UHGV virus genome: UHGV-0102749
DNA from: a virus
Reading direction: 5' to 3' (one strand)
Length of the DNA stretch: 18,456 bases
Shown here: in pieces, positions 11,088 to 18,456 of the stretch
Layout: every line of letters starts with the position of its first letter
Numbering within the stretch: the first letter of the stretch is position 1
Program-made: the position numbers and the translations under genes
Notes under the pieces: generated by a model
Told to the model about the DNA's origin: nothing
The model's database searches: none
What the model saw: only the letters and a program-made list of their open reading frames with translations

Positions 11088-11399
11088 CTAATCGGGAAAT
11101 AACGCCCGGATATTTCCGGCCATCTGACTGGTTATCTGTGCGGTGGGGGCTGTCTGTAACATGTGGCGTTCTGCCCTGGTTTGTGTCACTGATAACGCCT
11201 CATCGTCAGCCCATGCAGCCAGTCGGTAAGCCTCTGCCGGATTCATTTTCAGAAGTGCCAGCCCGGCCAGAAAAGCCACGCGTTGGCCGCTTTTGCGGGC
11301 TTCTGGTGTAAGGCTGTCCAGCCAGGCGCATGCTTCGCCTTCGTTCTTGACGGCGGCTGGCTTCAGATAGAAACTTATCCGTCTGGTTGGAGTCGTCAT
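11088..11399 (-). CDS. parR: ParR-like centromere-binding protein
   Basis: 103 aa from ATG 11399, 5 nt after the parM stop. RRISFYLKP…ACAWLDSLTPEARKSGQRVAFLAGLAL aligns with plasmid R1 ParR as I recall it (RRTIAFKLNP…DTLDSIPQGERSRLNRAALTAGLAL). The ORF-track start at 11534 overlaps parM and is rejected. Confidence 0.7.
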   Translation of the reverse strand: MTTPTRRISFYLKPAAVKNEGEACAWLDSLTPEARKSGQRVAFLAGLALLKMNPAEAYRLAAWADDEALSVTQTRAERHMLQTAPTAQITSQMAGNIRALFPD

Positions 11400-11403
11400 T
11401 GGT

Positions 11404-12363
11404 TTACTCCTTGTCCATTGCGTACAGCCCATTAACCAGAGCAAACTGTGGCACCCCGTCCGCGATGAAAGTCGCATTAACTCCGCAGGCTTCGCGGATA
11501 GCGGGTGCCACAATCTCCGCCCCTCCACCGACAACCATCACCCGCCCGTAACCCGAAAAACCCGCCAGCGCGCGGATCACGCGTTGTTTCAGTGTTTCTT
11601 CCTTTTCACGAATAACCGCCATCAGGCTGGCGTAATGCGCGTCATTGTGGATGTGCTGGCGCAGCCAGGCTTCATCATGGCGATGTTCGATAATGGTATT
11701 GGCGATGTGGTGACTGGTGCGCATACCGTTAGTGGCCATCACCGACAGTACGGCATCGGCCATCAGAGAAACGCCTACGTGTGGATCGCAAAACACCTGG
11801 CTGATACCTGCCAGTTGCCCCTGAACCTTTGCCACATCCAGCGTGGTTCCGCCCAAATCCACAATCAGCAGGGATTCAAACGGACTCATGTCAGCCAGTG
11901 CCTTAAAGCCTGCCGGAATGGATTCAGGCATAACCCGCACGTTACGGATAGTGAATGCCTCACCGTTCTGGTACTCCACCGGGCGCATGACGTTCGCTTT
12001 TTTGCGGTTGATGTTGGTCATATCCGGCTGTGCGTTTGTGTCGAAATACTCGCTCAGTGGCAGGGTGACAACCACATCCACCTCCTGTGGCGTGATGCCT
12101 GATTTGAGCAGCGCGTGATGAATGGCAATGACATTCACATCGCTGTACTGGTATTGCGTGTCGGTCGTCTGGACAAAGCGATCGCTGACCGGATCAAAAC
12201 CATAGCGCACGCCATCAAGCATGTAGTTCGCGGGCTGCGTGCCACCGAACGGCGCAGACCATTCCGACTTGAAGCTGTTCGGGCTGATGGCGTTGCGGCG
12301 TTCGCCGTTCTCAGTCCATGCCAGCTTGATGTTGGTGGAGCCGTCGTCGATACAAATTTTCAT
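11404..12363 (-). CDS. parM: ParM/StbA-family actin-like segregation ATPase
   Basis: 319 aa. MKICIDDGSTNIKLAW…SPNSFK…YQYSDVNVIAIHHALL…VMPESIPAG…LIVDLGGTTLD…VMVVGGGAE tracks R1 ParM block by block (phosphate-1 DDGSTN, connect/phosphate-2 DLGGTT, adenosine GGGAE); SD AAGGAA. Confidence 0.85.
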   Translation of the reverse strand: MKICIDDGSTNIKLAWTENGERRNAISPNSFKSEWSAPFGGTQPANYMLDGVRYGFDPVSDRFVQTTDTQYQYSDVNVIAIHHALLKSGITPQEVDVVVTLPLSEYFDTNAQPDMTNINRKKANVMRPVEYQNGEAFTIRNVRVMPESIPAGFKALADMSPFESLLIVDLGGTTLDVAKVQGQLAGISQVFCDPHVGVSLMADAVLSVMATNGMRTSHHIANTIIEHRHDEAWLRQHIHNDAHYASLMAVIREKEETLKQRVIRALAGFSGYGRVMVVGGGAEIVAPAIREACGVNATFIADGVPQFALVNGLYAMDKE

Positions 12364-12394
12364 GTCGCTTTTCCTTATGTTGATTAATTAATCG

Positions 12395-16961: not shown

Positions 16962-17300
16962 TTATAAATCAGTCTGTTTAATAAAACTTTGCCCGCGAAG
17001 CAGACGATCAACCGTGCGAAGTGCTTCGTATAATGTGAAATCCTGTCCAAACTGAGTGTCGCCGTTGCTCAGAGCAAAAATGCGGTTTCCGGTAAATGGG
17101 TTGCGTTGGCATCTGTGAACCACGATTCCAGCTTTTTCAATCAGCCAGGTGTGTTCGCCAATTTGTTTTACTGTATGGCCATCTGGCGTTGCGTGCGTCT
17201 CGCTCAGGCTGTAGCGGATGTTGCTGCGTGATGCGCTGGTAGCGAAACGGTTAGCTTGGCGTTCCGTTTCGGTGCGAAAATTACGGCGTTGCTTCAGCAT
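16962..17300 (-). CDS. Hypothetical early protein
   Basis: 112 aa; SD GAGGTG 7 nt upstream of ATG 17300. Confidence 0.5.
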   Translation of the reverse strand: MLKQRRNFRTETERQANRFATSASRSNIRYSLSETHATPDGHTVKQIGEHTWLIEKAGIVVHRCQRNPFTGNRIFALSNGDTQFGQDFTLYEALRTVDRLLRGQSFIKQTDL

Positions 17301-17314
17301 AAAATGACACCTCG

Positions 17315-17593
17315 TTATTTTGTCATCTGCACGTATTTCTCTGCGTTTCTGATGGTTTTCAGGAAAATTGCGAAGAGATTTACTGTACGTTTTGAGTTTT
17401 TTTCTTCTTGGTTGATGGGAAGGGCTGCTCTGTCAGCCTGCCTTTTCACTGCATTAACAGTTTGATTGGTACGCTTCGCGTAATCTTTCAGGCTTTCTTC
17501 GAGTACCGGTAATCCATGCTCATCGCGGTATGGGTAGAACGCCGCCAAACGCTCAAAATCCGCTTGCTCGTATGTGTTCAAGAGCTTTGTCAT
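17315..17593 (-). CDS. cox: Cox/Apl-like excisionase-repressor (first gene of early operon)
   Basis: 92 aa, divergent from the C repressor. DYAKRTNQTVNAVKRQADRAALPI parallels the P2 Cox helix-turn-helix (FAKLIGKSTGAVRRMIDKGKLPV, recalled). Position matches P2 cox. Confidence 0.55.
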   Translation of the reverse strand: MTKLLNTYEQADFERLAAFYPYRDEHGLPVLEESLKDYAKRTNQTVNAVKRQADRAALPINQEEKNSKRTVNLFAIFLKTIRNAEKYVQMTK

Positions 17594-17684
17594 GATGTGA
17601 TAACCTGTTCAGTCTGTGGTTATTTGTTGCTAAAAGTCGTCTCTAGGCGACTTTTAGGGTTAATTTAGTCGTCTGGAGACCACC
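17594..17684. promoter_or_regulatory. Lysis-lysogeny switch region (face-to-face Pe/Pc promoters and operators)
   Basis: 91-bp region between the divergent cox-like and C genes. Perfect dyad AAAAGTCG-N8-CGACTTTT (17632..17655) and direct repeat AGTCGTCT at 17635 and 17667 (32 bp apart). Confidence 0.5.
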
Positions 17685-17996
17685 ATGTCAAGTGGGTACG
17701 AAAAAAAACTGAAAGAGATACGGAAAAGTGAAGGGTTAACTCAAGCTGAGTTTGCAGATGTTACTGGGATAAATCTCGGAACTATAAAGAATTATGAGAG
17801 CGGTAAAAGAGAGGTTGGTTTAAGCGTTGTTGATCGCGTAATTAATTCTAAGGATTTCGAAAAATACACTATATGGCTTATGACGGGAAAAACAAATGAG
17901 GCTGCTGGGCAGATCAGTCCCTCTCTCTCCCCTGATGGGCCAGAAAACACATCGTCTTCTCAAAAATCCCGCAAGACTGGTACACAGCCCGGCTAA
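17685..17996 (+). CDS. C: Immunity repressor, P2 C-like (HTH)
   Basis: 103 aa. LTQAEFADVTGINLGTIKNYESGKR is a typical HTH, and KYTIWLMTGKTNEAAGQISPSL parallels P2 C (KYTLWFMTNQIAPESGQIAPAL, recalled). Located immediately upstream of int as in P2. Confidence 0.75.
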   Translation: MSSGYEKKLKEIRKSEGLTQAEFADVTGINLGTIKNYESGKREVGLSVVDRVINSKDFEKYTIWLMTGKTNEAAGQISPSLSPDGPENTSSSQKSRKTGTQPG

Positions 17997-18045
17997 TCAT
18001 GGAACGCTGGGGGCATGGTGGTCTTGTAACGCTGGGGTTTCACGA

Positions 18046-18456
18046 ATGAGCATAAAATCAATTCCGGGAGGGTATCTTCTTGACATGCGCCCTGAGGGGC
18101 GTAAAGGCAAACGCATTCGCAAAAAATTTAAAACGAAATCGGATGCAGTTTTATATGAGCGGTGGGTGCTGGCGCAACAGCATAACAATGAGTGGAAAGG
18201 AAACTCCATTGATCGCCGTCCGCTGTCGGTGCTTATTGACTTGTGGTGGAAATACCACGGCCAGCTAATGAAGTCAGGGCATAACACGCGCCTTAAATTG
18301 CTGCGCTTGAGTGAGGCAATGGATGACCCGTGTGTGCATAAACTTAATACAACGATGCTCACCGAGCTACGTGTGTCCAGGATAGAGCAGGGGATACAGC
18401 CCATAAGCGCTAACTTAAGGGTTGAACCATCTGAAGAATGCGACGCCTCGGTGCCT
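18046..18456 (+). CDS. int: Tyrosine integrase, P2 Int-like (N-terminal part; continues past window end)
   Basis: Translation from ATG 18046 (MSIKSIPGGYLLDMRPEGRKGKRIRKKFKTKSDAVLYERWVLAQQHNNEW…) matches the P2 Int N-terminus (MAIKKLDDGRYEVDIRPTGRNGKRIRRKFDKKSEAVAFEK…); open to the window end. Absent from the ORF track because it is truncated. Confidence 0.8.
   Translation, partial: MSIKSIPGGYLLDMRPEGRKGKRIRKKFKTKSDAVLYERWVLAQQHNNEWKGNSIDRRPLSVLIDLWWKYHGQLMKSGHNTRLKLLRLSEAMDDPCVHKLNTTMLTELRVSRIEQGIQPISANLRVEPSEECDASVP

Follow-up and report, generated by a model that had tools for sequence, protein, structure and literature searches.

What do the repeats in a 91-bp gap between two divergent prophage genes bind, and in which form are they read? 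In its crystal structure, the C repressor of P2 forms a symmetric dimer whose spacing suits two consecutive major grooves and which resembles proteins that bind palindromes (PMC2995052). The published view for all characterised P2-type C proteins (P2, P2 Hy dis and WΦ) is nevertheless that non-palindromic direct repeats are recognised (PMC2995052, PMC1904268). A preliminary description of the locus had noticed a perfect dyad and a direct repeat in the gap, took the direct repeats as the prime candidates for C operators and left the dyad as either the Cox site or a second operator. Here, the gap is identified as the lysis/lysogeny switch of a P2/WΦ-type E. coli prophage, which is an ordinary kind of switch. 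Its repressor probably acts on the early promoter, Pe, through a pair of 16-bp inverted-repeat operators (a probability of about 0.7).

Prophage context and gene layout

The window (the whole stretch of 18,456 nucleotides that was analysed) is a P2-family prophage encoding a GPO scaffold, a P2-family capsid protein, gpM, portal, terminase, a gpA-like replication endonuclease and an integrase. The region surrounding the gap (17300-18050) is 100% identical to chromosomal prophages in many E. coli strains, with matches in 230 of 5426 complete genomes and at least 80% query coverage in 75. Pathogenic E. coli commonly carry the prophage, including O26:H11, O104:H4 and O145, and in E. coli O26:H11 11368 (NC_013361) the element adjoins btuC. 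A DNA search of the phage collection gave just a 99-bp match in a Klebsiella element, and no close phage isolate there. From the gpA-like replication gene to the portal gene, the annotation of NC_013361 has a ParM segregation ATPase and a "plasmid partitioning/stability" function encoded in between (window about 11116-12391, minus strand), an unusual accessory module in an integrated prophage of the P2 family.

Three genes frame the switch:

17315-17593, minus strand: cox-position gene, 92 aa, a remote Cox-like winged-helix protein (open reading frame list, fold match)
17685-17996, plus strand: C immunity repressor gene, 103 aa, P2-type (open reading frame list, homology)
18046-18456, plus strand: integrase gene, 5' part, truncated by the window end (Pfam Int_N, E 1.9e-16)

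The sequence and the open reading frame list confirm that 91 bp (17594-17684) separate the cox-like and C genes. C is the first gene of a C-int operon, divergent from the cox-like gene, with the -35 element of Pe at its start; the integrase gene carries the annotation "phage integrase" in NC_013361. The 92-aa cox-position reading frame is the first of the early operon, directly downstream of Pe and opposite C.

By homology, C is a P2-type immunity repressor, a full-length homologue of P2 C. In a phmmer search of the PDB, residues 2-99 of 103 align to the P2 C structures 2XCJ/2L49 (E 7e-17), and BLASTP gives 37% identity to P2 C over 99 aa; the family assignments are Pfam HTH_3 and phrog_147 (E 1e-35). 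Residues 75-82, GQISPSLS, align with the P2 family motif GQIAPALA, the conserved C-terminal motif that precedes the flexible tail of P2 C (PMC3448106). The closest characterised relative is WΦ C (55.9% identity), whose recognition helix, LGTVKNYES, is nearly that of the window protein, LGTIKNYES. No C above 60% identity was found among the phage records of the collection searched, and UTI89 (class IX) belongs to a different immunity class. The switch is an uncharacterised newcomer to the known family of P2/WΦ-type switches, and the earlier reading of the locus as a P2-type C/cox switch is upheld.

The protein at the cox position has no Pfam or NCBIfam match, and hence no Pfam Cox match. It belongs to phrog_11533 (E 1e-56) and weakly matches phrog_575, "Cox-like excisionase and repressor" (E 4e-5). 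An AlphaFold2 model (pLDDT 80) has a beta-alpha-alpha-beta-beta winged helix followed by a C-terminal helix, and its top fold match in the PDB is P2 Cox itself (4LHF; probability 1.0, E 0.025, TM 0.48/0.55). From the profile match and the model, the protein would be a remote relative of Cox, for which the label "Cox-like" is reasonable.

Early and lysogenic promoters

A consensus scan of the region returned one promoter, TTGACA-18-TAAATT on the minus strand, with 10 of 12 matches. The position-weight scan gave it 13.7 bits, compared with at most 6.5 bits for any site on the plus strand.

17686-17691, minus strand: Pe -35 element TTGACA, overlapping the C start codon (consensus scan)
17662-17667, minus strand: Pe -10 element TAAATT, after an 18-nt spacer (consensus and position-weight scans)
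17587-17615, plus strand: weak candidate for the lysogenic promoter Pc, TTGTCA (17587-17592), 17-nt spacer, CAGTCT (17610-17615), 6.5 bits

Equivalents of Pe are present in all relatives (11.5-15 bits by the position-weight scan). On the plus strand its -35 element reads TGTCAA. This hexamer is invariant across all the sister immunity classes described below and recurs at the corresponding position in P2, in WΦ and in most other P2-type switches that were examined, with AGTCAA or CGTCAA in its stead in two of them. The -10 equivalents in the sister classes, TATATT and TAAGCT, follow the pattern TAnnnT. The overlap of the -35 element with the C start codon is likewise annotated in the P2 record, and seen in WΦ. 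Transcription from Pe would start near 17655.

For Pc, the plus-strand position-weight scan yielded weak and inconsistent candidates only. The top score, TTGTCA-17-CAGTCT, is the best candidate, a weak one; it has equivalents in the A24 and VG38 classes and is absent from three other loci (L021, L022 and L027). In the A24 class an alternative plus-strand candidate has a -10 element that overlaps the Pe -10, and in WΦ, by analogy, Pc is annotated directly next to the start codon of cox.

The dyad and the direct repeat

Both repeats of the preliminary description are present. The perfect dyad consists of AAAAGTCG (17632-17639) and CGACTTTT (17648-17655) with eight nucleotides between them, and two copies of AGTCGTCT (17635-17642 and 17667-17674) lie 32 bp apart, start to start. 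The perfect arms of the dyad reach 10 bp, CTAAAAGTCG (17630-17639) and CGACTTTTAG (17648-17657), and a repeat search describes the dyad as 13-nt arms, 92% complementary and 2 nt apart. The same search extends the AGTCGTCT direct repeat to 17 nt at 76% identity.

How much of this would be expected by chance? Of 5000 dinucleotide-preserving shuffles of the 91-bp gap, 0.08% contained a perfect dyad (arms of 10 bp or more, gap up to 20), 3.9% an exact direct repeat of 8 bp or more, and none the two together (0/5000). The dyad by itself is well beyond chance. The AGTCGTCT 8-mer on its own is marginal, and draws its weight from position and comparison.

The two had been presented as separate elements, and this does not hold. 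The two features are not independent, since the dyad's left arm takes in the left copy of AGTCGTCT; the second copy forms the left arm of another, weaker instance of the dyad's inverted repeat, the dyad itself being the distal one. What the gap contains is therefore two copies of one inverted repeat:

17668-17683, in the Pe spacer (about -29 to -14): promoter-proximal candidate C operator GTCGTC-TGGA-GACCAC, equivalent to P2 O1
17636-17651, about +5 to +20 of Pe: promoter-distal candidate C operator core GTCGTC-TCTA-GGCGAC, equivalent to P2 O2
17630-17657: extended dyad CTAAAAGTCG-N8-CGACTTTTAG around the distal operator (repeat search, shuffles)

In each site five of the six arm pairs are complementary. 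The sites are 32 bp apart and flank the Pe -10 element; elsewhere in the window the operator pattern has no match.

Conservation of the candidate operators

Which part of these repeats is kept in nature? The footprint rests on 10 distinct natural variants of the window's immunity class, two of which (L023 and L024) were recovered independently via the cox-like protein and the others with the proximal 16-mer as bait. A metagenome search with the 16-mer gave mostly chance matches and one contig (L102) in true context, and a contig search with the cox-like alignment gave two loci only, both of the VG38 class.

At the distal site, the left arm GTCGTC is invariant (0/6 columns variable), the right arm varies at two of its six columns (GGCGAC, GACGAC, GACTAC), and all four columns of the centre vary (TCTA, TATA, ACTA, GGTA, TGTA, GCGA, AGTT). 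The flanks are variable at 5/6 and 9/10 columns, 14/16 together. The difference between the arms and the rest of the site is strong (Fisher p = 5.7e-5), with the variants being related rather than independent samples. The outer A/T arms, AAAAG/CTTTT, vary within the class and are absent from L023. Within the class the conserved patterns are GTCGTC-N4-GRCKAC at 17636-17651 and GTCGTC-N4-GACCAC at 17668-17683. On this alignment the conserved unit is a 16-bp inverted repeat, GTCGTC-N4-GRCSAC, with 6-bp arms 10 bp apart centre to centre, and neither the AGTCGTCT 8-mer nor the AAAAG/CTTTT arms.

The proximal operator is unchanged in L023 and L024. Its conservation is confounded with translation signals, because the Shine-Dalgarno sequence of C, GGAGA (17675-17679), lies inside it; it is also confounded by the Pe spacer and, in the bait-derived variants, by the search pattern itself. 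A Shine-Dalgarno-like sequence is found within the proximal operator of every sister class, which places this site under a double constraint.

Sister immunity classes and the wider family

The window, VG38 and A24 form three sister classes in which the cox-like proteins are 80-87% identical and the left half of the gap is shared. C residues 70-103 are identical between them, and the helix-turn-helix and the right half of the gap differ. The N-terminal, helix-turn-helix part of C is about 40-55% identical between the classes (window 17685-17996, L002, L003 and L004; read by eye from an alignment), and the break in DNA identity falls within the C gene. This looks like recombination that swaps the specificity module of C along with the right half of the gap.

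The repeats change with the class. VG38 has GTGTACTTA/TAAGTACAC arms twice, 34 bp apart, as a perfect palindrome, GTGTACTTATAAGTACAC, and a degenerate copy, GTGTACTTATAGGAACAC; A24 has TGGTAnTC-N4-GAnTACCA twice, 23 bp apart. Both pairs occupy the same positions as the pair in the window. From this comparison, the repeats covary with the DNA-binding domain of C and not with the cox-like protein. Since the arms change with the helix-turn-helix of C while the cox-like protein and the left half stay conserved, the dyad is probably the promoter-distal C operator and is unlikely to be the Cox site. Of the two roles first offered for the dyad, then, the second operator stands and the Cox site falls away.

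Across the wider family, 10 of 13 P2-type switches have, as their best dyad upstream of the Pe -35, one with arms of 7 bp or more and a shuffle p <0.05. In seven of these, from diverged classes (window, VG38, WΦ, SW3, P37, 705R2 and UTI89), the dyad is centred 43-44 bp from the Pe -35. A second copy with one shared arm is found in the Pe spacer. Phage P37 carries the shared arm in opposite orientations at its two sites. The perfect palindrome of phage Chuche is the proximal copy, upstream of the Pe start, and in a Klebsiella relative the dyad straddles the predicted Pe start.

The region just downstream of the switch varies as well. E. coli 03_3013 (L009, 634-918) and two further loci (L025 and L026) combine the VG38 C class and gap with other cox-position genes, which diverge after about 50 codons in L025 and about 30 in L026; L009 has a different protein accession. 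Their products are chimeric or frameshifted, which points to frequent rearrangement there. A contig labelled Vagococcus sp. (NZ_JBQPOM010000071.1) bears an almost unchanged enterobacterial P2-type switch of the VG38 class; the label is likely to reflect contamination or a mislabelled assembly.

Comparison with characterised switches

The mapped operators of P2-type repressors are repeats of 8 bp, 22 bp apart, in P2 and of 10 bp, 34 bp apart, in WΦ, both flanking the Pe -10, and of 8 bp, 26 bp apart, around the -35 in P2 Hy dis (PMC1904268, PMC2995052, PMC1904263). In the sequence records, P2 has GTTTAGAT twice and WΦ has GTCACCAATA twice. The window shares the P2-type trait of two repeated operator sequences that bracket the Pe -10 or -35, 2 to 3 turns apart. 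Its repeats, about three turns apart on either side of the Pe -10, follow the mapped WΦ/P2 layout, and their early designation as prime C-operator candidates has gained support. The trait stressed for P2 C, non-palindromic operator repeats, is not found here: each copy is an inverted repeat with conserved arms. This bears on the binding mode of C, not on its homology.

WΦ, a P2-type phage of immunity class III, is the nearest parallel. Its C is 56% identical, with a near-identical recognition helix; its Pe -35 is TTGACA at the C start; and one operator copy sits in the Pe spacer, with the second about three turns downstream (34 bp, compared with 32 bp in the window). The distal copy is likewise embedded in a dyad with A4/T4 arms, AAAAGGT-N12-ACCTTTT (L013 400-429) as against AAAAGTCG-N8-CGACTTTT, and the mapped half-site GTCACCAATA lies within it. 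The operators have the outer GTC...GAC in common and differ in the inner bases (GTCACC in WΦ, GTCGTC in the window), so the two are likely to be heteroimmune. WΦ also differs in its gap, which is 152 bp rather than 91 bp, and in its Cox, a recognised Cox-family protein, whereas the window protein lacks a Pfam Cox match. In the literature the WΦ sites are 10-bp direct repeats, not palindromes.

The comparisons with P2 and 186 that had been suggested for this locus were both carried out. P2 shares the int-C/cox order, a dimeric helix-turn-helix repressor of about 100 aa (PMC2995052), the overlap of the Pe -35 with the C start codon and a pair of repeated operators that brackets the Pe -10; its Pe and Pc converge (PMC2995052). 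In contrast to the window, its GTTTAGAT repeats (O1/O2) are 8 bp long, 22 bp apart and not palindromic, and its C is only 37% identical. Inspection of the P2 O1/O2 sequence found no hidden dyad with 10-bp spacing, and the P2 Cox boxes (TTAAAG/CNCA) are absent from the window's switch. Between O2 and Pc, P2 has an unannotated dyad, TTTAGTGC-N10-GCACTAAA (L006 about 1428-1453; shuffle p = 0.003), the right arm of which, GCACTAAAC, resembles the operator half-site ATCTAAAC.

The 186 switch region also has face-to-face early and lysogenic promoters, with inverted-repeat repressor sites at the early promoter and an excisionase-type second repressor, Apl, on phased direct repeats (PMC1904263, PMC7498355). 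It differs in its repressor, CI, which has two domains and 196 aa and is unrelated in sequence to C, and in its three sites plus distal sites and cII, none of which occur in the window. A likeness in binding mode may be that of the controller protein C.Esp1396I and the 434 and P22 c2 repressors, to which P2 C is structurally similar (PMC2995052). These proteins use tandem inverted repeats, with one helix-turn-helix dimer on each, a non-contacted centre and cooperativity, which is the mode proposed here; they have no common sequence family with the window's C beyond the helix-turn-helix fold, and the sites of C.Esp1396I are 15 bp apart rather than 32 bp.

How C may read its operators

Read from the sequence, Pe would fire leftward into the cox-like gene from TTGACA (17691-17686) and, after the 18-nt spacer, TAAATT (17667-17662), and C would repress it via the two copies of GTCGTC-N4-GAC(G/C)AC. 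One copy fills the Pe spacer (17668-17683) and the other covers about +5 to +20 (17636-17651). The arms, 10 bp apart centre to centre, would suit one symmetric C dimer per site, so that two dimers would occlude the Pe spacer and the initially transcribed region. One dimer per palindrome fits the structure of the P2 C dimer and the ability of WΦ C to bind a single "half-site" alone (PMC1904263). A distance of 32 bp, or about 3 turns, would put the sites on the same face of the DNA, where two dimers could plausibly bind cooperatively, as in WΦ. High levels of C would also be expected to dampen its own expression, as is known for P2 (PMC3448106), because transcription from the presumed Pc start would cross both sites before reaching the C coding sequence, and GGAGA is part of the proximal one. 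The most likely target of the Cox-like protein would be the left half of the gap, in which Pc, the weak lysogenic promoter, is also expected.

Is the symmetry of the sites really what C reads? It is possible that only the AGTCGTCT direct repeats are recognised, each by one monomer of a C dimer whose second monomer rests on non-specific DNA, and that the dyad is irrelevant to the repressor. Published work on P2, P2 Hy dis and WΦ adopts this model (PMC2995052, PMC1904268), it agrees with the lack of a usable dyad in P2's own sites, and the left arm is indeed the most invariant part of the distal site. It seems unlikely here, as the right arm is conserved too (2/6 columns variable against 9/10 in the adjacent flank), the natural change from GGCGAC to GACGAC raises the symmetry, dyads recur in 10 of 13 P2-type switches, and the arm inversion in P37 would not be tolerable for a strict reader of direct repeats. 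Alternatively, the dyad may serve mainly as RNA, either as a stabilising stem-loop right at the 5' end of the Pe transcript or, within the Pc leader, by pairing with the proximal copy and so burying the C ribosome-binding site. The dyad hairpin is predicted at -16 kcal/mol on the plus strand and -11.5 kcal/mol on the minus strand (z about -5), and the lowest-energy plus-strand fold of 17622-17690 pairs both operator copies and covers GGAGA (-23.4 kcal/mol, z -3.6). The predicted Pe start (about 17655) falls 2 nt inside the dyad, just as the annotated Pe feature of WΦ ends (L013 428) at the second base of its own; the distance of the dyad centre from the Pe -35, which seven diverged classes keep at 43-44 bp, and outer arms that span 28-34 bp in all and exceed the needs of a small helix-turn-helix dimer, point the same way, and the conservation of the distal right arm could preserve a hairpin instead. 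As the main function, however, an RNA role is doubtful. The outer arms vary within the class and are missing in L023, no compensatory changes in them were seen among the variants, and an Rfam scan of 17300-18050 gave no match. The Chuche palindrome, upstream of the Pe start, and the Klebsiella dyad, straddling it, defeat it as a general rule, and it explains neither the second copy nor the covariation with the helix-turn-helix of C. A secondary RNA role is plausible and compatible with operator function.

Two further readings of the dyad fare worse. A binding site for the Cox-like protein might be sought there, given that Cox must act in the gap and that the dyad lies between both promoters. 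This is very improbable: the dyad is replaced between classes whose cox-like proteins are 80-87% identical and tracks the helix-turn-helix of C instead, the operator copy in the Pe spacer has the same arms, the Cox/Apl-type proteins that are known recognise box arrays rather than a single palindrome (PMC3936717, PMC7498355), and the left half, which is conserved across classes and carries phased TGT boxes, is a better candidate. The least probable reading makes the dyad and the T-rich run downstream of it an intrinsic terminator or attenuator on the plus strand. A consensus scan did flag 17630-17657 plus GGTTAATTTA as terminator-like. One such match is what shuffled sequence yields (mean 0.8), the T-run is interrupted and is absent from L023, and a terminator between Pc and C would block its own operon; this reading was rejected as being at chance level and not conserved.

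Paired inverted-repeat operators thus remain the preferred reading for the window. Does it extend to other P2-type repressors? The odds seem about even that, in most P2-type classes except P2 itself and with WΦ included, each "half-site" is an inverted-repeat operator for one C dimer, and that the dyad about 43 bp from the Pe -35 may double as a 5' stem-loop of the early mRNA. Were this so, much of the paradox of a symmetric C dimer reading non-palindromic DNA would be removed, and P2 would be a degenerate exception rather than the rule for the classes examined. Palindromic operators, if borne out by binding assays, would revise the generalisation of the "non-palindromic direct repeat", a modest departure. 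GTCGTC-N4-GACSAC, present twice, offers a concrete and testable operator definition for an uncharacterised immunity class. The sister classes provide a natural specificity-swap series, useful for studying the evolution of immunity specificity, in which the C-terminal half of C, the cox-like gene and the promoter frame are the same and the helix-turn-helix and operator arms differ. Outside the field, this is an ordinary prophage switch.

The left half of the gap

Where, then, would the Cox-like protein bind? The remaining part of the gap offers one candidate:

17594-17629: the gap's left half, candidate region for Pc and for a Cox-like operator (conserved across immunity classes)

Within it, TGTGATAACCTG and ATCTGTGGTTATTTGT are kept across the three sister classes in which the right half has been replaced. 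TGT boxes begin at 17596, 17606, 17615 and 17625, with spacings of 10, 9 and 10 bp, and the known proteins of the Cox/Apl type occupy several short boxes, spaced by roughly a helical turn, and protect some 70 bp (PMC3936717, PMC7498355). The conservation and the phasing tentatively suggest this half as the more likely target. A CRP-like reading of TGTGA-N6 was rejected, since conservation between classes does not extend to the right half.

The 11-mer GTTATTTGTTG (17619-17629) recurs at the int-distal end of the prophage in NC_013361 (L001 8150-8160), both being T/G-rich sequence, and could mark sites common to the Cox-like protein as a directionality factor. The surrounding stretch (L001 8150-8190) is TGT-rich and non-coding; it is flanked by btuC and the gene that follows int, close to where the attachment site is expected.

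Some prophage remnants have lost the protein itself. In E. coli AR_0128 (L005) and TUM1887 (L010), most of the cox-like gene is deleted, with Pe, both operators, C and int retained intact; these remnants look like "grounded" prophages that have kept their immunity.
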